Positions 2,595 to 28,192 are shown, counted from the first letter of the stretch. The stretch is DNA of 64,000 bases from Candidatus Multivorans sp. (GCA_965224025.1 OZ245033.1:1792001-1856000), one strand, 5' to 3'. Numbers and translations: made by a program. Notes: generated from the sequence alone by a model not told the origin.

Positions 2595-4838
2595 ATGCGA
2601 ACGATTCTCGTCCAAATACGCTTGCCTGGTCTTCTTGGTGTCCTCGCCGCCGCGCTCACCCTCGCACCGGCGACTGCGCAGAAGGAGCCCCTCGAACTCC
2701 GCCACATCTACGGGCCGGACGCGCACGACTTCTCGCCTGACCTGCCCCGGATCCGCTGGTTGCCGGGGGGCCGCGACTACTTGCAGGCCGAAGACGACAC
2801 GGACGGCGCCGGCGTGTCCTGGACGTTCGTCGACGCGGCAACCGGAGACGCGGAGCCCTTCTACGATCCGAGGCCTCTGGCTGAGGCGCTCGAAAGCCAA
2901 CTCCGGCTGGAAGCCGAGGACGCAGCCTCCCGAGCGCGGCCCGGGTCGCTGCGCCTGTCGCCGTCGACCGACCGGCTACTCCTCCACCTCGCCTCGGACC
3001 TGTTCGTCTGGGACTTCGATTCCGAGACTCTCACCCGCCTCACGCACGGTCCCGAGGACGAGGAACTGGCCCGTTTCTCGCCCGACGGCCGGAGCCTCGC
3101 CTTCGTACGCGACGCGGACCTCTACGTCGTCGACCTCGAAGGCGACGAAGTCCGGCTGACCACTGACAGCGGCGAGAACACGCTGAACGGCAAGTTGGAC
3201 TGGGTCTACCAGGAGGAGATCTACGGCCGCGGCAACTACCAGGCCCACTGGTGGAGCCCGGACAGCCGCCGCATCGCGTTCCTGCAGACCGACGAGCGGG
3301 ACGTGCACCGGTTCACTGTCGTCGACCATGTGCCCTACCGGCCACCTCTCGAGGTCTACCCGTACCCGAAGGCCGGCGACGCGAACCCCCGCGTCCGGCT
3401 CGGCGTGGCGTCGGCCGCGGGCGGCGACATCACCTGGATCGATCCGGGGATCTACGGGCACACCGAGATCCTGTTCGTGAACGTTGCGTTCTCCCCTGGC
3501 GGCGACGTCTGGTACCAGGTCCAGGACCGCCGCCAGACCTTCCTCGACCTGCACCGGGCCGACCCGGCCAGCGGCCAGTCACACCGCGTGCTGCGCGAGG
3601 AGTCCCATGCATGGGTCAACGTGCTCGGTCCGCCGCGCTTTCTGGAACGGAACGGCCAGGAAGACGGCAGTTTCCTCTGGTTCAGCGAGCGGACCGGCTT
3701 CCAGCACGTCTACTGCTACGACGAGGACGGCAACCTGGTCCGACCCCTGACCGAGGGGCGCTGGGAGGCCCGCTCGCTCCACGCCGTCGACGAGGAGGCG
3801 GGCGTAATCTACGTGTCGGGCACGTATCGCACGGCACTCGGCGCCGACGTGCTGCGGGTGGCTCTCGACGGCGCCGGCGCGACTCTGTTGACCGACACGC
3901 CCGGCAGTCACCGCGGGAGCTTCCCGGAGGACGGCCCTATCGAGCACTGGATCGCCACGTCGAGCGATCTCCACACACCGACGAGGATGACTCTTCGCCG
4001 CGCCGAGGACGGCGAGACCGTTCGCGAACTCGGCGGGGGCGACGTGCCGGACATCGAACGGTTCGAGATCTCGGCGCCGGAACTGCTGACCATCACCACA
4101 AGCGACGGCGTCGACCTGGAAGCGATGCTGATCCGGCCGCACGGCTTCGATCCCGATCGCGTCTACCCCGCCTGGATCCACGTCTACGGCGGTCCACACG
4201 CCCAGCAGGTCCGAGACGCCTGGCCCGGGGCCCGCGGCATGTGGTTCCAGTACCTTGGCCAGCAGGGACTCGTCGTGCTCGTGGTCGACAACCGCATCGC
4301 TTCCGGCAAGGGAGTCGAGTCGACCTGGCCGGTGTACAAGAACTTCGGCGAGCAGGAACTCGTCGACCTAGTGGAAGCGGTCGATTGGCTGGGTGCCAAG
4401 CCCTGGGTCGATGCGGAGCGGATCGGCCTCGACGGCTGGAGCTTCGGCGGCTACATGACCCTCTACGCGCTGACCCGCTCCGACCGCTTCCGCGCCGGCA
4501 TCGCCGGCGGCAGCGTCGTCGACTGGCGCGCCTACGACTCGATCTACACCGAGCGCTACATGTCGACGCCGGACGACAACCCGGACGGCTACAAGGCCGC
4601 GTCCGTCCGCGAGCGAGCGGCTGACCTCCACGGCGACCTGCTGCTCATTCACGGCACGATGGACGACAACGTCCACATGCAGAACACGCTCCAGATCGCC
4701 TGGGACCTGCAGAAGGCCGGCAAGCCGTTCGAGATGATGCTCTACCCGAAGTCGCGCCACGGCGTGGGCGATCCGGACCTCTCGCTCCACCTGCGCGAGA
4801 CGATGGCGCGCTTCATCCTGAAGACGATCGAGCCCTGA
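2595..4838 (+). CDS. Dipeptidyl peptidase IV (S9B family)
   Basis: Signal peptide, DWVYQEE propeller motif, GWSFGG nucleophile, DDNVH acid, C-terminal His (SRHG). Confidence 0.95.
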   Translation: MRTILVQIRLPGLLGVLAAALTLAPATAQKEPLELRHIYGPDAHDFSPDLPRIRWLPGGRDYLQAEDDTDGAGVSWTFVDAATGDAEPFYDPRPLAEALESQLRLEAEDAASRARPGSLRLSPSTDRLLLHLASDLFVWDFDSETLTRLTHGPEDEELARFSPDGRSLAFVRDADLYVVDLEGDEVRLTTDSGENTLNGKLDWVYQEEIYGRGNYQAHWWSPDSRRIAFLQTDERDVHRFTVVDHVPYRPPLEVYPYPKAGDANPRVRLGVASAAGGDITWIDPGIYGHTEILFVNVAFSPGGDVWYQVQDRRQTFLDLHRADPASGQSHRVLREESHAWVNVLGPPRFLERNGQEDGSFLWFSERTGFQHVYCYDEDGNLVRPLTEGRWEARSLHAVDEEAGVIYVSGTYRTALGADVLRVALDGAGATLLTDTPGSHRGSFPEDGPIEHWIATSSDLHTPTRMTLRRAEDGETVRELGGGDVPDIERFEISAPELLTITTSDGVDLEAMLIRPHGFDPDRVYPAWIHVYGGPHAQQVRDAWPGARGMWFQYLGQQGLVVLVVDNRIASGKGVESTWPVYKNFGEQELVDLVEAVDWLGAKPWVDAERIGLDGWSFGGYMTLYALTRSDRFRAGIAGGSVVDWRAYDSIYTERYMSTPDDNPDGYKAASVRERAADLHGDLLLIHGTMDDNVHMQNTLQIAWDLQKAGKPFEMMLYPKSRHGVGDPDLSLHLRETMARFILKTIEP

Positions 4839-11059: not shown

Positions 11060-11566
11060 ATGAACCGCCGCCGGCTCGCCATCGCGATCGTCGGTTTCGC
11101 CGTCATCGGCCCTATCGGCGCTTTGTTCTGGTTCGAGTCCAGGCTCGAAGCGAGACTGTCTCAGCGACCCGAAGTCGGTATGGTGTTCCCCGCCCTGCCG
11201 GGCCTCGCCGACGGCGAGTCCCTGCCGGCCTCTCCGGGCCGGCTTCGGGTCGTTACTTTCGCCAAGGCCGGCTGCGGCAACTGCGACCGCACGATCGCCA
11301 CGTTCCGGCGACTCGCGGTTGACGGCGAGCTCGACTTCGACCTGATCGCGGTCATCGCGGGCGCTGAAACGACCGAGCTCGACGACACGGCCACCCTGCG
11401 CCCGATCGCCGACCCGACCACTTCGATATCCAAGCGCTTCGGCGTGGTCCACGTACCGCTCGTCTTTCTGGTCGACGAGCACTCCCGGATCCGGGCCGTC
11501 ACAACCGGCGAACAGCCCGAGGCCGCCTGGCGCTCCTTTCTGGGAATCGAAACCGATGCGCTCTGA
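11060..11566 (+). CDS. Membrane-anchored thioredoxin-fold redoxin (TlpA/ResA-like)
   Basis: N-terminal RRR plus TM helix, CGNC motif, FGVVHVPLVFLVD cis-Pro strand. Confidence 0.85.
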   Translation: MNRRRLAIAIVGFAVIGPIGALFWFESRLEARLSQRPEVGMVFPALPGLADGESLPASPGRLRVVTFAKAGCGNCDRTIATFRRLAVDGELDFDLIAVIAGAETTELDDTATLRPIADPTTSISKRFGVVHVPLVFLVDEHSRIRAVTTGEQPEAAWRSFLGIETDAL

Positions 11567-11574
11567 TCCGTCTG

Positions 11575-12177
11575 ATGATGCGCTCTGATCCGTCTGATAA
11601 GGCCCGCCGTCGACGGTTGGCTGCCGCCGGGCTCATCTTCGCCACCGGCCTGATGGCGGTCGCAGTCCGCGCTGTCGGGCCCACCCTGGACCGCCTCGCC
11701 TGGGCAGCCTCCATCGACCCTTCGGCGCCGGGGCCCGGCCAGATCGTTCGACAACAAAAACGCTCCGATTGCGGCCCGGCCGCGCTCAAGATGATCCTCG
11801 ATCACCACGGCGTCGCCAGCGCCACGCTCGCCGAGCTGGAGGTCGCCACCGGCACAGGCCCGGACGGCACCAGCATGCTCGCCCTGAAGAAGACCGCCGA
11901 GCAACGCGGTCTCGCCAGCCAGGGACTCCGCCTGCCGGTTGAGCGGCTGTACGACATGCCGATGCCCGCGATCGCCCATGTCCACGGCGATCACTTCGTC
12001 GTCATTCGCAGCGCCGGCGAGGAACTGGTCATCGACGACCCGTCCCTGGGCCGCCTGCGCATGAGCACCAGGACCTTCGAACGTTCCTGGGACGGCGTCC
12101 TCCTGGCCTTCACCGGCGGTCCACCAACGTTTTCGCGGACGGAAAGAAACCCGTCCATTTCGCCCAGCAACCCTTAG
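11575..12177 (+). CDS. Stand-alone C39-family cysteine peptidase with N-terminal signal/anchor
   Basis: QQKRSDCGPAAL (Q, catalytic C), HFVVI (H), IDDPS (D), FERSWDG. No fused ABC domain. Starts RRRRLAAAGLIFATGLMAVAVRA. Confidence 0.92.
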   Translation: MMRSDPSDKARRRRLAAAGLIFATGLMAVAVRAVGPTLDRLAWAASIDPSAPGPGQIVRQQKRSDCGPAALKMILDHHGVASATLAELEVATGTGPDGTSMLALKKTAEQRGLASQGLRLPVERLYDMPMPAIAHVHGDHFVVIRSAGEELVIDDPSLGRLRMSTRTFERSWDGVLLAFTGGPPTFSRTERNPSISPSNP

Positions 12178-12318
12178 CCCCTCAAAGGGAGAACAACCAT
12201 CAACCACTCATCCAAACGCGCCGTCGGACCGATGACCGGCGCCAACTCTTCGACCGACCCGAACACCATGAACCACAACGCCCCCTTCACACACACAACA
12301 CCGAAAGGACGCCCCTCC

Positions 12319-12642
12319 ATGAAGATGCGTATCGCCCTCCTATCCGGACTTCTGACTCTCGCCGCCGGCGCCGCCCTGGCGATTCCGACGACACAGAGCG
12401 TGACGGCGGCCGACCAGGACCAGGACCAGGTCCCTACCGCCTGGGACGAACTCCTCACCCCATCCATCGTCGGCCCCACCCTCGAACCTGACGCCGTGGA
12501 ACTGGCCGTCTACGGCCCTTGCGGGTGCATTCCGATCCCTGGCTGCCCGTTCCCGATTCCTTTCCCGCGGCCATGGCCTCCGGGCGGCCCCATCTTCAAT
12601 CCGTTCCCGGTCCCGGGTCCCTGCGGCCCCTGCCCGTTCTAG
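12319..12642 (+). CDS. Secreted precursor-like peptide 1 with Pro/Cys-rich tail
   Basis: RBS GAAAGGA; signal peptide MKMRIALLSGLLTLAAGAALA; acidic linker; tail PCGCIPIPGC…GPCGPCPF. Confidence 0.75.
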   Translation: MKMRIALLSGLLTLAAGAALAIPTTQSVTAADQDQDQVPTAWDELLTPSIVGPTLEPDAVELAVYGPCGCIPIPGCPFPIPFPRPWPPGGPIFNPFPVPGPCGPCPF

Positions 12643-12693: not shown

Positions 12694-13023
12694 ATGATCA
12701 GACTCGCATCGATTGTTGTCAGCCTCTCGCTTCTTGCGGGAGCTTCAGCCTCTGCCGCGCCGCTGGCGCTCGAGACTTCCACCACCACGCCCCAAACAAG
12801 TGACTTCGCTATCGAGAGCGCCTTTCCACTCGCGATGAACGAGCTGGCTCAACTGACGGGAGGCGCACCTGACTGGGTCGTGGCGGGTTGCCTCGCTGTC
12901 GGTGGCTTCGGCGGTGGGCGCGCTCTTGCACTGAGGCTGGCGAAACGCGTCGTGGTTGGCGTTGTATGCCCTTGGTGCGGGACGGCGCTGATCGTTGTCG
13001 GAATAGGCTGTCTTCTCATGTAG
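12694..13023 (+). CDS. Bacteriocin-like precursor 2 (signal peptide + double-Gly leader + hydrophobic core)
   Basis: RBS GAAGGA; signal peptide ending ASASA; LAMNELAQLTGG motif; 52-aa core with 4 Cys. Confidence 0.8.
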   Translation: MIRLASIVVSLSLLAGASASAAPLALETSTTTPQTSDFAIESAFPLAMNELAQLTGGAPDWVVAGCLAVGGFGGGRALALRLAKRVVVGVVCPWCGTALIVVGIGCLLM

Positions 13024-13108
13024 AACCGTCGCCGCAATCCGTGTGAAAGCGAATCCCTCGGTACAAAGGACCATCAGACTCAGAACAAGCTCAAGAAAGG
13101 AAGTGACC

Positions 13109-13405
13109 ATGAAGACACCGATCGTCTTCTTCGTTCTCGCCGCCGTTACTCTGGCTCCACTGACAGGGCCATTCACCGCAACAGTGCTCGACTCCGTGTC
13201 ACCCCCGCAATCGGCAGACACAATGCGGCCCATTTCTGACCAGACCGCGGAGGCAATCCGAGGTGCGCTGGCGTGGAAGTGGAAGTGCGCGATCGTCGCG
13301 GCCTCAGTAGGAGCCGGCCTGTTCGCAGCCGCTTTCGTGACCGCCGGGGGTGCCGCGATAGCTGCACCCTTCCTGCTGAACGCCGCAGCGTTCTGCCTCA
13401 TCTGA
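13109..13405 (+). CDS. Bacteriocin-like precursor 3 (signal peptide + GA-type leader + hydrophobic core)
   Basis: RBS GAAAGGA; hydrophobic N-terminus; ISDQTAEAIRGA motif; 45-aa Ala/Gly-rich core with 2 Cys. Confidence 0.78.
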   Translation: MKTPIVFFVLAAVTLAPLTGPFTATVLDSVSPPQSADTMRPISDQTAEAIRGALAWKWKCAIVAASVGAGLFAAAFVTAGGAAIAAPFLLNAAAFCLI

Positions 13406-13520: not shown

Positions 13521-15143
13521 ATGGCGACAACAGGAACAACAATGACCTCGATCCGTAGCATCCGGGCTCTGGCCGGGACCTATTGGACCGTCCACACCCG
13601 GGCGCTGCGGACGGACCGGTCGATGGTTCTCCTGATCTTGATGGCTCTGCCGAGCACCGCCGTCGCGCTCTTCCTCTCCGTCTTCTTGCCGCATCTGATC
13701 TTCGGCGTGGAAGACCCCGCGCTGCGCGGCGGACTGCTCACCGTCGCGCTTTCTCTGGTGGCCGCAATCTGGCTCTTCGTGCAGGTCTTCAGCCAGCAGT
13801 CCATCAGTTGGCTGCTCGATATCCGGCCGCTCATCACGCTTCCGTTCGGGTTCGGCACGCTCTATCGACTACGCCTCGCCGGCTATCTGGCCGGTGCGTG
13901 GCTGCTGGCTCTTGGCCTGGCCGGGCCGTACTTTGCCGTCGTCCGGTCAACCAGCGTGGTCGGCTTTGCCGCGTTGACCGCAGGCATCTGCCTGGCAGTG
14001 GTGATTCAGGGCCAGATCGTGTCCATCGTGTCGTGGCAACGGGACCGGCTGGTCGAGGGAATCATGGGCTCCCTGGTCGTGCTCGTCGTCATCTGCGCGA
14101 TGTACTACGGACTCTACTGGGGGGTTCTACTGAAGGCAGGCGAGATCCGTGGCGACGACATCCTGGGATGGGTGCGGAACTCCACCCTGGTCCGAGCCGC
14201 CGCCTGGACGCCGGCCGGATTGCTGGCCGGCATGCTGAACGACCCCGGCGGCTGGTGGGAGAACGGAATTCGCGTCCTGGGTTTGTGTACTTATGCCGTC
14301 CTCATCGGTATCTGCGACCGGGAGTTGCTGCGCAGATCGGGATTCGGCCCCGCCCCGAGTACACCCCGCGTCAAGCATCCCACCCTGCCGTTGCCGACAC
14401 TGCTGCGCCGGTGGCCCGCCTTGTCGCCGGGAGGCGTCCTGACATTGATCGAGATCGAATGCGGCGCCAGGGACCGTGGCCTCCGCTGGTCAATGATCAT
14501 CGCCCTCGCCCTTTTCCTCTTTCTCACAGTCGTCATCGGAACTCCGGTAGTCGCCGTCGTTGGTTCCCTGACGCTTGCATGCACGTTGCTGACATCCCAC
14601 CGTGCCGGGCGCCTCTTGCCCACCTGTCGTCTCTGGTCCGAGTCGTTCGCCCTCCCCGTTACCCTCATCGGGGCTCTACGTGCCATGGGCCAGGCCTCCA
14701 GCCTCGTCGCGATCGGTTTCGCTTGCGCAGCCCTCGCGGCATCCTTCGTTCGCTTCGGCTGGTTCGGCTGGCTCCACGTCGGCTATATCGTCCTCCATTC
14801 TTCCGCCGCGATCTTCTTTGCCGACGCGGCCTACGGGTGGTTCGACGCGCGCTGGCAGGCACCTGTCGGAACAGAGGGAACGGACCATCGCGCAGGGAAG
14901 ATCCTGGCCCAAAACATGTTGGGGCTTAGTCTCCTTCTCCCCTTTGTCCTCGTCCTCTTTCTCTTTACGGTCAATGAAGGAACTCCGGGGCGTCTGGCGC
15001 TCAGCATCCTCCTTTCGATCTACGTCGTCCTCGCCGTCACGGCAGGGTTGGCCTTCCGGGCATCGCAACGCCGTTTGGTCGCTTCCAAGGGCCTCGACGC
15101 GCTCCTGGTGCGGAACTCCACGGTGTCAGATTGTCCCAGTTGA
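13521..15143 (+). CDS. Multi-TM putative ABC exporter permease
   Basis: 540 aa with about 12 hydrophobic helices; LLDIRPLITLPFGFGTLYRLRL and AAWTPAGL motifs; ABC ATPase downstream. Confidence 0.7.
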   Translation: MATTGTTMTSIRSIRALAGTYWTVHTRALRTDRSMVLLILMALPSTAVALFLSVFLPHLIFGVEDPALRGGLLTVALSLVAAIWLFVQVFSQQSISWLLDIRPLITLPFGFGTLYRLRLAGYLAGAWLLALGLAGPYFAVVRSTSVVGFAALTAGICLAVVIQGQIVSIVSWQRDRLVEGIMGSLVVLVVICAMYYGLYWGVLLKAGEIRGDDILGWVRNSTLVRAAAWTPAGLLAGMLNDPGGWWENGIRVLGLCTYAVLIGICDRELLRRSGFGPAPSTPRVKHPTLPLPTLLRRWPALSPGGVLTLIEIECGARDRGLRWSMIIALALFLFLTVVIGTPVVAVVGSLTLACTLLTSHRAGRLLPTCRLWSESFALPVTLIGALRAMGQASSLVAIGFACAALAASFVRFGWFGWLHVGYIVLHSSAAIFFADAAYGWFDARWQAPVGTEGTDHRAGKILAQNMLGLSLLLPFVLVLFLFTVNEGTPGRLALSILLSIYVVLAVTAGLAFRASQRRLVASKGLDALLVRNSTVSDCPS

Positions 15144-15448: not shown

Positions 15449-16727
15449 ATGGCGACCTTCACGAACCCGAGCAGCCGGGCGGACCTGCTGCTGACCCTTG
15501 CGCGGCTGTCGTTCCCGGACGCCGTACGGCGGGCCAACCAGCCCGTGGCGGTGGCGATCCTGATCGCCGTTCTGTTTCTGGTGTTCGCGACCGTCGCCAC
15601 ATTCGGCCTTCTGCCCGTTCTGTTCACCCTAGAGAGCGACGCCCTGCAGCGCAATCTGCTGAACCTGATGGCCTGCTCCGCTACGGCGTTCGGGCTGCTC
15701 GCCCAGGTGGCACTCCGAGCACCGACCACGTGGCTGCTCGATCTGGACGACCTGCTGCGGCTGCCGGTGGGTTTCCGAGACCTGTACGGTCTCCGTTTCG
15801 CTCTGAGTACGATGGGGTACTGGCTCCTTGTTCTCGGTCCCGCAGGCGCCTATCTCACGGTCATGAGGTCGGGAGGGATCGCCGGAGTACCCGTCACGTT
15901 GCTGGGCATCGTGAGCCTGGTCTGGATCTTCGGCCGTGTGGTTGCGGTCTTGTCGCTCTTCGCCGACCGTTGGGTCGAAAGTGCGCTCACCATACTGGCC
16001 ATGATGATGATCATGGCGCTCTGCCAGTTTGCGATCCTCGTCGGCGTAATGGCCTTCGGAGGAGAGCTCGATTCCGAAGGGGTCGCTCGGGCAATCGAAG
16101 GTTCTTCAGCTCTCGGCGGCCTCGGCTACACGCCGCCGGGACTTGTCGCCGGAATCGTCCACGAACCGGGCTGGTCGGCGTCGAATCTGGCGAGACTCGG
16201 AAGTCTGTTTGCCGCTCTCGGCGTCTTGATCGTGCTGGAGAACCGGCTCCTTCTTCGCAGCTACCTCGATCATCCCGGTGGTGACCGCCGCGCCGCTTCT
16301 GGAGTACTGCCTCTGGCGCGGATGCTCCGCGGGTCGCGCCGCCTCAGTTCCTTGGGCGTTCTCACGGTGCTCGAGACGGAATGCCTGTTGCGTGCCCAAG
16401 AGGATACCGGCGACCATCAGGCAGGACGCGACGAGGAAGAACGGCCAGCCGAACCAGTCGAGCGGCGCGAAGTTCGGGGCCTCCCTTCTGGTTCCGCAGC
16501 TGGCCCTTGGCCCAGCCTTCCTCACCTTCCTTCTGTACGTGCTCTACGACGGGCAGCGCGTCAGCCCACTCACTGCCGGCCTCATCGCCGCCGCGGTCCT
16601 CCTCCTCGCTGCCGTTGCCGCATACGCCTCGCCCCGGCGGCAGGAACGCGTGCTCAAGGCGCGCGGACGCGAACTCCTGCTCGAAGACCCCGCCGAAGAC
16701 CCTCCGAAGCTACCGAGCCCCTCCTGA
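15449..16727 (+). pseudogene. Second permease paralogue with internal deletion/frameshift at ~16395
   Basis: Aligns with 13521-15143 (LLDLDDLLRLPVGFRDLYGLRF; LGYTPPGL; VLTVLETEC). The C-terminus is in another frame and roughly 120 aa are missing relative to the paralogue. Confidence 0.7.
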
Positions 16728-16758
16728 CCACTCACAACCACGAGGAACTCCGAAACTC

Positions 16759-17547
16759 ATGGAAGCAATCAAGGCAGACAACCTGACTCGGTCCTTCGGC
16801 GGCAACGTCGTCGTCGACAGCGTGGATCTCGACGTCCAGGAGGGTCAGATCCTGGGGTTCGTCGGTCCCAACGGGGCGGGCAAGACGACGACCTGGTCGA
16901 TGCTGACCGGGCTGCTCAAGCCCACGAGCGGCACGGTCCGCCTGCTGGGCAAACCGGTCGACGTGAACGACACGGAGCTCAAGCAGCAGCTCGGCATCGT
17001 GCCGGACCAGAGCATCCTCTTCGAGAGCTTGACCGGAGAGGAGTTGCTGCTGTCGTACGCCCGCATCTACGGCCTGAGCCGCGAAGACGCCGGGCAACGA
17101 ACAGACGAGGCGCTCGCCGTTTTCGACCTCGAGGAGGCCGCCAAGCGACCGATCACCACCTACTCCCACGGTATGAGAAAGAAGATTCGCCTCGCTGCGG
17201 CGACCCTGCACGCGCCGCGAGTTCTGTTTCTCGACGAGCCGTTCGAGGGCATGGACGCCCTCAGCGCGCGCACCGTCATGTCGATCCTGCAGCAGATGGC
17301 CGAGCAGGACGGCGTCGCCGTGTTCCTGACGTCCCACATGCTCGACTACGTCGAACGCGTGTCGAGCCATATCGCCGTCATCCGGGACGGCAAGGTGCTC
17401 CTGTCCTGCTCCCGGGAGGAGTTCCGCGAGCTGCCCGACGCCGAGGGAGAAGACGGCGCCGGTCGGCTCGAGAACCTCATTCTCAGTATCTCCAGACGCG
17501 AGAGGTTCTCCCGCCTCTCGTGGATCGGCAACAGGAGCAAGACATGA
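16759..17547 (+). CDS. ABC transporter ATP-binding protein (ABC-2 type)
   Basis: GPNGAGKTT Walker A, YSHGMRKK signature variant, LFLDEPFEGMD Walker B, TSH switch. Confidence 0.95.
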   Translation: MEAIKADNLTRSFGGNVVVDSVDLDVQEGQILGFVGPNGAGKTTTWSMLTGLLKPTSGTVRLLGKPVDVNDTELKQQLGIVPDQSILFESLTGEELLLSYARIYGLSREDAGQRTDEALAVFDLEEAAKRPITTYSHGMRKKIRLAAATLHAPRVLFLDEPFEGMDALSARTVMSILQQMAEQDGVAVFLTSHMLDYVERVSSHIAVIRDGKVLLSCSREEFRELPDAEGEDGAGRLENLILSISRRERFSRLSWIGNRSKT

Positions 17548-18323
17548 CCGAGCCTTTCCAAGACACCGACGGCCTGCGCCGGACCGGGCCGACCGGAGAC
17601 CAGCCGCAGGACCGCGGAGGTTGGCCTAGCGCCTTGATCGGGATCGTCACCTCGCCGCGAACGAGCTTCGAGATCGTGCGCCGGAGGGCACCCTGCCTCG
17701 GTGTTGTCGTCCTCCTCCAGGCCAGCGCCGTCTGCCTTGCACTGCTGTCGTCATCGTTCGGCCTCCAGGTGCGGCGTGCCCAACTCACTGAGATGATGCC
17801 GGGACAGCCGGACCAGGTCGAAGCCTTGATGGCCCAGGCGGAGCAGTCGATGGCTGTGACGCGATCGATCGCGGCCGGCGGCGCCGCTCTCCTGACGGCT
17901 ATCGTCTTGCTCGTGCAGGCCGTGTTCGTCTGGCTCCTGGCGATTGCGTTCCAGGGCCGCCCGCGGTTCGGACAAGCCCTCTCGCTGATGGCGCACGTCG
18001 GCGTGATCGCCCTCCTCAGGAACTGGGCCAACTTTGGCCTCCTCCACTTTCGGGACCTGAGTGCGATCCGATCGCCGCGGGACCTGCAGGTCCCAATGGG
18101 AATCGACCTCTTCCTGGCAGGAGACAGTGCCGCGCTCAACGCGGTCTGGGCAAGCATCAACCCGTTCACGATCTGGCTCCTCGCACTGCTTGGCCTGGGC
18201 GCCGCGGCGGTCCTCGGTCTGTCGCAAAGGCAGGGTTTCACGCTCGCCGGCATCTACTGGGCGGCGACGACCACGCTCTCCGCGGCAGCGGCAGGCGTGG
18301 CTAGCCGCCTCACGCCCGGGTAG
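17544..18323 (+). CDS. Yip1-domain membrane protein
   Basis: IVTSPRTSFEIV…, about 5 TMs, INPFTIW motif; ATGA overlap with the ATPase stop. Confidence 0.85.
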   Translation: MTEPFQDTDGLRRTGPTGDQPQDRGGWPSALIGIVTSPRTSFEIVRRRAPCLGVVVLLQASAVCLALLSSSFGLQVRRAQLTEMMPGQPDQVEALMAQAEQSMAVTRSIAAGGAALLTAIVLLVQAVFVWLLAIAFQGRPRFGQALSLMAHVGVIALLRNWANFGLLHFRDLSAIRSPRDLQVPMGIDLFLAGDSAALNAVWASINPFTIWLLALLGLGAAAVLGLSQRQGFTLAGIYWAATTTLSAAAAGVASRLTPG

Positions 18324-27690: not shown

Positions 27691-28192
27691 TCAGGTCGTC
27701 GAGCTTGAGCAGGACGACGGCGACAAGACGCCCGAGGAGGATCACGCATGCGAGTGCCGCCGGCACGGCCACGGCAAAGCCCAGGACGCCGGCTGTGCGC
27801 GTCAAGAGAAGGTAGAGCAGCGATGGCCCGAACAAAGGGAGCCACAAGCCGGACAACCCGGCGCCGACCCGTAGCGCCTAAAGCGCCCGAAACTGCACCG
27901 GCAGCGGCAACAAGCGCCGAACGTCGAAAACCCGGGACATCTCGAAGCGCATCACGACCGCTGCAACGACCCAGAACAGCACCGCGATCGCGGCCAGCAG
28001 GTTCAGAGTGTTCCGCCGCAGCAGGTCGTCATCCAGTTCGAAGGTCGCTGCCGTGGCCCCGACCAGGAGCACGCCGAGAAGAAGAAGGGCGCCGCCCATG
28101 AGGAGCTTCCCAAAGCGCTCCTTTCTGCCCCGCCGCCAGTTGTCCCGCAGAATGGTCGGCATCAACGCCCGGCAATCGCTCAGCGTGCCCAT
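27691..28192 (-). pseudogene. Third paralogue of the 13.5/15.4 kb permeases, N-terminal fragment with in-frame TAG
   Basis: VFDVRRLLPLPVQFRAL*ALRVGAGLSGLWLPLFGP…LTRTAG aligns with LLDLDDLLRLPVGFRDLYGLRFALSTMGYWLLVLGP…VMRSGG. Confidence 0.65.

Follow-up and report, generated by a model that had tools for sequence, protein, structure and literature searches.

A stretch of 64,000 nucleotides from the genome of Candidatus Multivorans sp. (GCA_965224025.1 OZ245033.1:1792001-1856000; the whole stretch is called the window below, and positions are counted from its first letter) contains, at 12319-12642 on the plus strand, a short gene for a secreted peptide that ends in a tail rich in proline and cysteine (the Pro/Cys peptide). 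The gene is real, and its family is found, among the genomes searched, in one genus of Thermoanaerobaculia (Acidobacteriota) only. Judged from DNA comparisons, the mature part of the peptide is exchanged between species as a cassette whose breakpoint lies at the end of the signal peptide. The explanation preferred here, held tentatively, is that the product is the cargo of a bacteriocin-like locus, a peptide stapled by disulfides and exported for use in competition, targeting or recognition.

The Pro/Cys Peptide and Its Family

12303-12309, plus strand: Shine-Dalgarno-like GAAAGGA, 9 nt before the ATG, read from the sequence
12319-12642, plus strand: Pro/Cys peptide gene, open reading frame of 107 codons, 107 amino acids, MKMRIALLSGLLTLAAGAALA followed by IPTT...
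12319-12381, plus strand: Sec-type signal peptide, residues 1-21, MKMRIALLSGLLTLAAGAALA, predicted cut after Ala-Leu-Ala
12382-12498, plus strand: acidic Pro/Thr/Ala-rich spacer, residues 22-60, with one conserved Trp (W42, in an AWD motif)
12499-12516, plus strand: conserved ELAVY-G segment directly before the first Cys
12517-12639, plus strand: Pro/aromatic/Cys tail, PCGC...PCPF, 41 amino acids, 17 Pro and 5 Cys

Translation bears out the architecture that a first-pass annotation had described, namely a signal peptide, an acidic spacer and a 41-residue tail with 17 Pro and 5 Cys and with GPCG at both ends (YGPCGC and PGPCGPC); the full tail, PCGCIPIPGCPFPIPFPRPWPPGGPIFNPFPVPGPCGPCPF, also contains six Gly, five Phe and four Ile, with Arg, Trp, Asn and Val once each. 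The signal peptide was called by inspection from its n-, h- and c-regions and the −3/−1 rule: it has the basic n-region (MKMR), the hydrophobic h-region (IALLSGLLTLAAGA) and the small −3/−1 residues (Ala-Leu-Ala at −3 to −1, then Ile) of a substrate of Sec and signal peptidase I. Across the family the +1 residue is Ile, Thr, Val or Ala and never Cys, and a lipoprotein identity was rejected on that ground. The spacer is acidic (DQDQDQ, WDELL, EPD), with neither Lys nor Arg. The annotation's remark that the tail is unlike its neighbors holds throughout the 64 kb: among 75,182 segments of 41 residues in six frames, at least 15 Pro together with at least 3 Cys occur in seven overlapping segments, all from this one locus.

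The frame is also open upstream of the true start (12232-12318), and a similar sequence, MNHxxPFTHTTPKGRPS, precedes the gene in 6 of 10 loci (the window, L013, L014, L016, L019 and L020). This conserved upstream frame probably reflects conservation of the ribosome-binding region; in the other four loci and in every database homologue the start is MK(x)RIA, which the window gene shares.

A word-indexed search of 5.8 billion proteins returned 25 homologues of 100-113 amino acids (E <= 0.01, from 74 candidates), and a profile of 33 sequences gave 19 matches at E <= 0.001 among 1.84 billion cluster representatives; these 19 include two long, unrelated repeat proteins as well as P0037, which has the leader alone in common with the family. 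Database homologues and genome loci together comprise 45 distinct sequences. Longer or fused forms numbered 0 among 1966 candidates at E <= 0.01, evidence that the search tool itself rates as weak. A lack of homologues, or a longer parent gene in relatives, had been named by the annotation as what would undo its proposal; what the searches returned is 25 homologues and no longer form among those 1966.

In alignment A1 of the family, M1, A19, A21 and P23 in and beside the signal peptide are invariant, as are A63, just after the nearly invariant E61 and L62, and P67, C68, G69, C70, P72, P74, P77, P79 and P97 of the tail. The spacer varies in sequence and length and is almost deleted in L021 and P0039. 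Over the 45 sequences the tail is 32-46 amino acids long and averages 38% Pro and 16% aromatic residues, with 0-3 Lys/Arg, 0-3 Asp/Glu and 2-5 Cys, which leaves the net charge near zero or slightly negative; its last residue is Phe in 38 members, Tyr in 3, Leu in 3 and Ile in 1. Five Cys occur in 19 members, three in 10, two in 9 and four in 7. The odd count in the window's peptide, from which an intermolecular bond or a modification had been suggested, is thus shared by 29 of 45 members and is no rule of the family.

Indels in the family alignment comprise whole codons, and stop codons fall at the same place. Ratios of nonsynonymous to synonymous substitution (dN/dS; Nei-Gojobori, 12 pairs) are about 0.1-0.4 in the signal peptide, 0.5-1.3 in the spacer, and 0.13-0.48 in the ELAVY segment and tail. 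By these segment values, the tail is the part kept by purifying selection, and the spacer, near neutral, drifts. The homologues of similar length and the dN/dS well below 1 in signal peptide and tail are the grounds for regarding the gene as real. Two things speak for a non-functional frame, whether Pro-rich by chance or a piece of some larger gene: the 67% GC of the window, which favors spurious frames rich in Pro, Ala, Gly and Arg, and the failure to find a known family or fold; however, with 45 distinct homologues of similar length, in-frame indels, a common stop position, constrained signal peptide and tail, a Shine-Dalgarno sequence, and the only two long profile matches being unrelated, a non-functional frame is extremely improbable. 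GC content by codon position in the gene is 0.68/0.57/0.79, and neighboring genes show the same pattern.

Exchange of the Mature Part between Species

In 15 of 15 loci an SNF2 helicase gene, a TlpA-like redoxin gene and a C39 peptidase gene are followed by the Pro/Cys gene, which is always the first gene after C39. Where the flank reaches far enough, the genes downstream encode peptides of double-glycine (GG) type, one or two large membrane proteins (perm1, perm2), an ATP-binding cassette (ABC) ATPase and one or two Yip1/YknW proteins. Against this constant background the tail comes in two types. Type I reads PCGC..CPFP.., with or without a C-terminal Cys pair; within it P-C-G-C-x-P-x-P..P-x-P is invariant and C-P-F-P nearly so. 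Type II reads P-x-P-C-D-D..Q/S-C-I-P-x-P-x-P-F and has two Cys. Both types are found in both species clades and with the same sets of neighboring peptide genes:

Neighbor set A (pepA/pepB): type I in the window and L016; type II in L020
Neighbor set B: type I in L013; type II in none
Neighbor set C: type I in L014; type II in L019
Neighbor set D: type I in L015; type II in L017, L018 and L021

Pairwise comparisons place the boundary of the exchanged segment: in each of the three pairs, DNA identity drops at nt 60-74. L016 and L019, which are 99% identical in SNF2 and 95-96% identical in C39, perm2 and Yip1, differ in tail type and peptide set; their Pro/Cys genes are 100% identical through nt 59 and 33-57% identical after nt 90. 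Between the window and L020 the blastn match stops at nt 74 and resumes at nt 307 of 324, and because identity recovers at the 3′ end, only the mature part has been replaced. For L015 and L017 the spacers are still related, the tails are unrelated, and identity is back after the stop codon.

No protein of the cluster tracks tail type: perm1 tracks pepA/pepB, and perm2 and Yip1 group otherwise. Over the 10 genomes the ABC ATPase is 87-98% identical, Yip1 is 48-60% identical between groups and perm2 42-50% (L013 and L020 versus the rest); the Yip1 and perm2 groupings match neither species clade nor peptide set. Silent alternative cassettes, as in antigenic variation, were sought in the window's genome and rejected: type II queries matched the gene itself only (E 0.001 and 2.5e-8), all other matches having E >= 0.02.

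A Proposed Cargo Peptide Acting outside the Producer

The preferred explanation runs as follows. The peptide would be exported by Sec and cut by signal peptidase after Ala-Leu-Ala, as its N-terminal sequence suggests, leaving a disordered acidic spacer joined to an uncharged tail of ~40 amino acids with 2-5 Cys. Oxidation of these cysteines in the periplasm, for which the neighboring TlpA-like redoxin is a candidate, would give a disulfide-stapled, non-globular, protease-resistant peptide of polyproline type, which the adjacent C39 peptidase would not cleave at the canonical site. It would then act outside the producer, alongside yet independently of the neighboring hydrophobic GG peptides, as the allelic pattern suggests. 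Four features argue for a partner outside the producing cell: a conserved export signal precedes a mature part that differs sharply between types yet is conserved within each; that part is exchanged across species; it assorts independently of the neighboring genes; and its composition suits survival outside the cell, a Pro-rich and disulfide-bonded peptide being expected to resist proteases. The lack of any cluster protein that tracks tail type also fits such a partner.

Several points count against a cargo peptide. No RNA run that could show expression is listed (three entries of DNA or unknown type, from two studies). Scans with Pfam and NCBIfam found no recognisable outer-membrane export component in the cluster, and, were the peptide a toxin, no cognate immunity gene there varies with the tail. 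The tail is uncharged, unlike known proline-rich antimicrobial peptides (PrAMPs). Two AlphaFold2 (AF2) runs gave no fold, with a predicted local distance difference test score (pLDDT) of about 50 in the tail, and none of seven related or paralogous loci inspected carries the Pro/Cys gene. The allelic pattern itself comes from 10 genomes of one genus, with the species tree judged from SNF2, redoxin, C39 and ABC identities only.

The same allelic pattern has led us to weigh a secreted signal with pherotype-like alleles, which would induce the cluster or report kin through a receptor encoded elsewhere. A signal or inducer peptide had also been among the annotation's proposals. Discrete allelic types exchanged independently of the neighboring peptide genes resemble the pheromone alleles of Gram-positive bacteriocin loci, and the stability expected of a Pro-rich peptide with disulfide bonds would be of use to a signal outside the cell. 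However, neither a histidine kinase, a response regulator nor any other receptor is encoded in or beside the cluster, and the mature form, at ~85 amino acids, is long for a pheromone unless it is processed, with no conserved processing site seen; a signalling role is accordingly doubtful. Whatever probability the readings weighed in this text leave over belongs to functions beyond them.

The Surrounding Gene Cluster

The remaining genes of the cluster, which is flanked by the SNF2 helicase gene and a DUF6152 gene, are the following:

11060-11566, plus strand: membrane-anchored TlpA/Redoxin-like thiol:disulfide oxidoreductase with a CGNC motif (Pfam Redoxin, 3.5e-5, under the gathering score; syntenic in 15/15 loci)
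11575-12177, plus strand: stand-alone C39 peptidase with a basic N-terminal stretch and one transmembrane segment (Pfam Peptidase_C39, 2.4e-31)
12694-13023, plus strand: pepA, with a Sec signal peptide, a spacer, a leader ending MNELAQLTGG and a Gly-rich hydrophobic core with 4 Cys
13106-13405, plus strand: pepB, with a Sec signal peptide, a spacer, the leader ISDQTAEAIRGA and an Ala/Gly-rich hydrophobic core with 2 Cys
13521-15143, plus strand: perm1, a polytopic membrane protein of 540 amino acids with no Pfam or NCBIfam family
15449-16786, plus strand: perm2, a membrane protein paralogous to perm1, disrupted in the window's genome
16756-17547, plus strand: ABC ATPase of DrrA/ABC-2 type (Pfam ABC_tran, 2.4e-30; NCBIfam drrA, 5e-65, under cutoff)
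17520-18323, plus strand: Yip1/YknW-family membrane protein (Pfam Yip1, 1.5e-9; NCBIfam YknW_fam, 2.3e-19, under cutoff)

The redoxin has weak NCBIfam matches to MauD, ResA and StoA. The best solved relative of the C39 domain is LahT150 (6mpz, 8.9e-14), with PCAT1 also among the closest, and residues Q60, C66, H140 and D155 are invariant in 16 sequences. Because each protein has a basic N-terminus followed by one hydrophobic segment, the positive-inside rule suggests that the catalytic domains of both C39 and redoxin face the periplasm. The likely C39 substrates are hydrophobic peptides of 45-55 amino acids, released from neighboring precursors whose GG motif stands 30-45 residues after the signal peptide; the leaders of pepA and pepB end in GG or GA, the pepA family (9 sequences) has invariant G at −2 and four invariant Cys, and pepB has orthologues in L016 and L020. 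Gaps of 141 and 51 nt separate the Pro/Cys gene from its neighbors, and none of 14 terminator-like sites lies there on the plus strand; the gene is probably co-transcribed with the hydrophobic peptide genes, as this arrangement suggests. Yip1-domain proteins are reported in leaderless and circular bacteriocin clusters (PMC11580447).

Co-encoded and probably co-transcribed with hydrophobic peptides, the Pro/Cys peptide might instead be a periplasmic holdase or immunity factor that binds GG peptides after C39 cleavage and keeps them off the producer's inner membrane; an uncharged surface of aromatic and Pro residues, with an acidic spacer to keep it soluble, would suit such a task, and a chaperone or immunity role had been among the annotation's proposals. 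That proposal has become less likely, as tail type tracks neither the set of neighboring peptides nor any other protein of the cluster. It is perm1, found in the window, L016 and L020 only, i.e., where the pepA/pepB pair occurs, and not the Pro/Cys gene, that tracks these peptides; an ABC/YknW-type module is already present in the cluster; nothing about a housekeeping holdase would call for alleles swapped like cassettes; and related clusters manage without a Pro/Cys gene. We therefore consider a holdase or immunity function improbable.

Those related clusters come from a wider survey in which 79 of 401 genomes (including unpublished G152, which enters into no other result given here) had a C39 match. 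The same layout (anchored C39, Sec-plus-GG peptides, permease, ABC ATPase and Yip1) recurs at five loci from other families of Acidobacteriota and at two paralogous ones. One of the paralogous loci, L061 (G000:C1:3362000-3378000), belongs to the window's own genome and holds a second stand-alone C39 gene, 53% identical, followed by a gene for one 100-amino-acid Sec-plus-leader peptide (LTDAELADITGR, then G...) with 2 Cys; in a congener (G186), L062 is a full second cluster of redoxin, C39, two GG peptides, permease, Yip1 and ABC. A Pro/Cys peptide is missing from both L061 and L062.

Some details of the clusters stand apart from the main argument. In perm2, residues 1-317 of the orthologue match 15449-16399 and residues 441-528 match 16434-16697 in a different frame. 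Between them residues 318-440 have been lost; residues 401-426 align in inverted orientation, on the other strand at 16474-16397. Either the gene has undergone a deletion with a small inversion or the assembly is wrong here; the perm1 gene is intact. An open reading frame of 104 amino acids on the minus strand at 27878-28192, 10 kb from the cluster, matches residues 59-168 of orthologous perm2 at 36% and looks like a displaced piece of a gene for a related membrane protein. In L014 (G236) the orthologous C39 gene has one in-frame TGA and may be a pseudogene or reflect a sequencing error, the rest of that cluster looking intact. One peptide of set D (L015, L017, L018 and L021; 57 amino acids in L017 and L021) is encoded between the Pro/Cys gene and the next peptide gene, and has a classical double-glycine leader at its very N-terminus (...LPEAGLATVTGG, then VDWVVDFNC...) and no Sec signal, yet the cluster's only C39, which the peptide would have to reach, is predicted to face the periplasm and there is no exporter of the peptidase-containing ATP-binding cassette transporter (PCAT) type. 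Upstream of the Pro/Cys gene by 7.5 kb, at 2595-4838 on the plus strand, lies a gene for a protein of the DPP-IV/prolyl oligopeptidase S9 family (Pfam 2.3e-74 and 7.5e-50); enzymes specific for proline could have Pro-rich peptides as substrates, but no evidence was found that links this gene to the Pro/Cys peptide.

Relation to the C39 Peptidase

The fit of the leader to the C39 consensus had been called weak, and closer comparison agrees. With E61-L62 set at −8/−7, positions −2/−1 of the Pro/Cys peptide are Pro67-Cys68 instead of Gly-Gly, whereas all 28 neighboring GG-type peptides have G at −2 and G, A, T or R at −1 (G at −2 was a condition of the filter that collected them, and is independently invariant in the pepA family). 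Because Gly at −2 is lacking in the Pro/Cys peptide and present in all 28, C39 cleavage at the canonical site is probably not to be expected. Cleavage between AVYG and the following Pro, which had been put forward as the site to assay, loses its footing in A1, where the final Gly of AVYG is G, W, S or N.

By eye, ELAVY fits the leader pattern (hydrophobic −4/−7/−12, often E −8). A matrix built from 24 distinct GG leaders (−12 to −3) gives its best match at ELAVY in only 4 of 33 members, where scores in the ELAVY register have p values of 0.02-0.55 against shuffles and lie far under the true-leader median of 9.9 bits. The AWDL motif of the spacer is the best match in several members (e.g., P0014, at 13.1 bits), and the same signal peptide and AWDL spacer precede a GG-type hydrophobic core in L015, L018 and P0037. 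This common signal peptide and AWDL motif make the family look derived from, or in recombination with, GG-type precursors, having lost the GG site and gained a new core. No GG-type or G-Q motif is conserved directly behind the family's signal peptide; its N-terminus is a Sec signal and not a PCAT-type leader, and the Pfam and NCBIfam scans found no PCAT-type exporter in the cluster. A complex prediction for C39 (residues 45-200, 16 rows) with the peptide (residues 40-107, 26 rows) scored 0.02 against a mark of 0.32, without controls, and counts neither way.

These data bear on a further possibility, that the peptide is a periplasmic accessory factor of peptide maturation: either an uncleavable pseudo-substrate or regulator of C39, with Pro-Cys in place of Gly-Gly and perhaps a disulfide to the catalytic Cys that the redoxin releases, or a CGC-type thiol relay that, with the TlpA-like redoxin, closes the disulfides of GG peptides. 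The constant place of the gene behind C39 in all 15 loci agrees with this, as do the leader held in common with GG peptides, the resemblance of E-L-x-x-Y before the first Cys to E(−8) L(−7) x x hydrophobic(−4) of the pepA leader MNELAQLTGG, the three clustered Cys (CGCx5C) kept in type I, and the adjacent CGNC redoxin; CXC motifs can be redox-active mimics. However, the leader matrix has its best match at ELAVY in only those 4 of 33 members, with scores no better than those of shuffles, type II tails have no CGC, C39 and redoxin identities track species clades and not tail type, and related C39 clusters, one of them (L062) with a redoxin, lack such a gene. An accessory role is therefore unlikely, if still to be reckoned with. 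A metal-binding peptide, considered for the CGCx5C motif, was set aside, there being no metal-related genes nearby and no such motif in type II.

Distribution and Searches for Known Families

A match to the Pro/Cys peptide was found in 10 of 401 genomes sampled across the phylum, namely the window's genome and all nine of its congeners (9/9), and in none of the other 391 Acidobacteriota genomes of that set. A pattern scan of 185,579 species genomes gave nine loci, all in Candidatus Multivorans, Thermoanaerobaculia or Acidobacteriota records. These genome sets are samples, and restriction to one genus means that the family was not found elsewhere among those searched.

The best Pfam match (DUF6338, 14 bits against a cutoff of 26.5), the best NCBIfam match (MarB, 14.5 against 87) and the best profile match in the PDB (E-value 0.17) all fall on the signal peptide, and a search of the ESM Atlas for look-alikes of residues 22-107 gave no usable match. 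AF2 modelled the whole protein (26 rows) with a mean pLDDT of 53.1 and a single helix, residues 3-20 in the signal peptide, and residues 40-107 (31 rows) with a mean pLDDT of 54.3 and no secondary structure. No description of the peptide or cluster was found in the literature searched, from which supplementary files and about 1.7 million PMC articles were absent. The peptide belongs to no described family, and of the earlier proposal a genuine secreted small protein is upheld, with no known relatives in Pfam, NCBIfam, the PDB or the Atlas; the cluster is a variant of known double-glycine/C39 systems.

Significance

Acidobacteriota are abundant and mostly uncultured, and little is known of their means of competition. 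The locus points to a bacteriocin-like system unlike the textbook double-glycine pathway, with Sec export, a periplasmic C39 and redoxin, and ABC/YknW-type protection, whose first peptide gene encodes an unprecedented Pro/aromatic/Cys peptide with a mature part traded between species. Should the peptide act beyond the cell, it would add a new chemical type, uncharged, Pro-rich and disulfide-bonded, to the stable ribosomal peptides and offer a handle on strain-level interactions in the phylum. A more specific proposal, offered with low confidence, is that the tail represents a new class of uncharged, disulfide-stapled, polyproline-like extracellular peptides, made through Sec and periplasmic oxidation, and kept as at least two ancient alleles that pass from species to species in cassette form; the tail would then determine strain recognition or targeting, for example as the receptor-binding partner of the co-encoded hydrophobic GG peptides, whose target range it would set.

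Comparison with Known Systems

The closest parallels are the double-glycine bacteriocins and microcins processed by C39 peptidases (LahT150, PCAT1, ComA; class II, e.g., MccV). As in those systems, the peptide adjoins a C39 with the conserved Q/C/H/D residues; the neighboring peptides have leaders of E-L-x-x-L-x-G-G type, Gly-rich hydrophobic cores and Cys pairs; and the Pro/Cys family has its N-terminal leader in common with them. It differs in lacking Gly at −2/−1, in carrying a Sec signal peptide, and in a tail that is Pro-rich and not Gly/Ala-rich; the C39 here is stand-alone and predicted to face the periplasm, and is not fused to an ABC exporter. Stand-alone C39 peptidases whose substrates first pass through Sec are also found in the Pseudomonas Fap amyloid (FapD) and Fil pilus (FilB) systems, to which the NCBIfam matches are partial (3.4e-13 and 9e-6, both under cutoff). 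Unlike those systems, this locus has no FapF-type channel, usher or fibre subunit in the Pfam and NCBIfam scans, and the Pro/Cys peptide has no GG motif of any kind.

A Yip1/YknW protein and an ABC-2-type ATPase after the peptide genes recall the protection modules of which B. subtilis YknWXYZ, which protects against SDP, is an example; the module is context here, and nothing ties it specifically to the Pro/Cys peptide. Animal PrAMPs (Bac5, PR-39, apidaecin and the Trp/Pro-rich indolicidin) are likewise small, rich in Pro alternating with hydrophobic or aromatic residues, and without regular structure. PrAMPs are strongly cationic, with Arg-Pro motifs and without Cys or disulfides, whereas the Pro/Cys tail has 0-3 basic residues and 2-5 Cys and no sequence relation to them, and does not qualify as a PrAMP. 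In its evolution the peptide resembles the pneumococcal comC/blpC pherotypes and the blp bacteriocin-immunity mosaics, in which a conserved export or leader part is likewise joined to a sharply diverged mature part and alleles cross species boundaries and assort independently of neighboring bacteriocin genes. Those Gram-positive systems rely on GG leaders, PCAT exporters and an adjacent receptor kinase, none of which applies to the Pro/Cys peptide.

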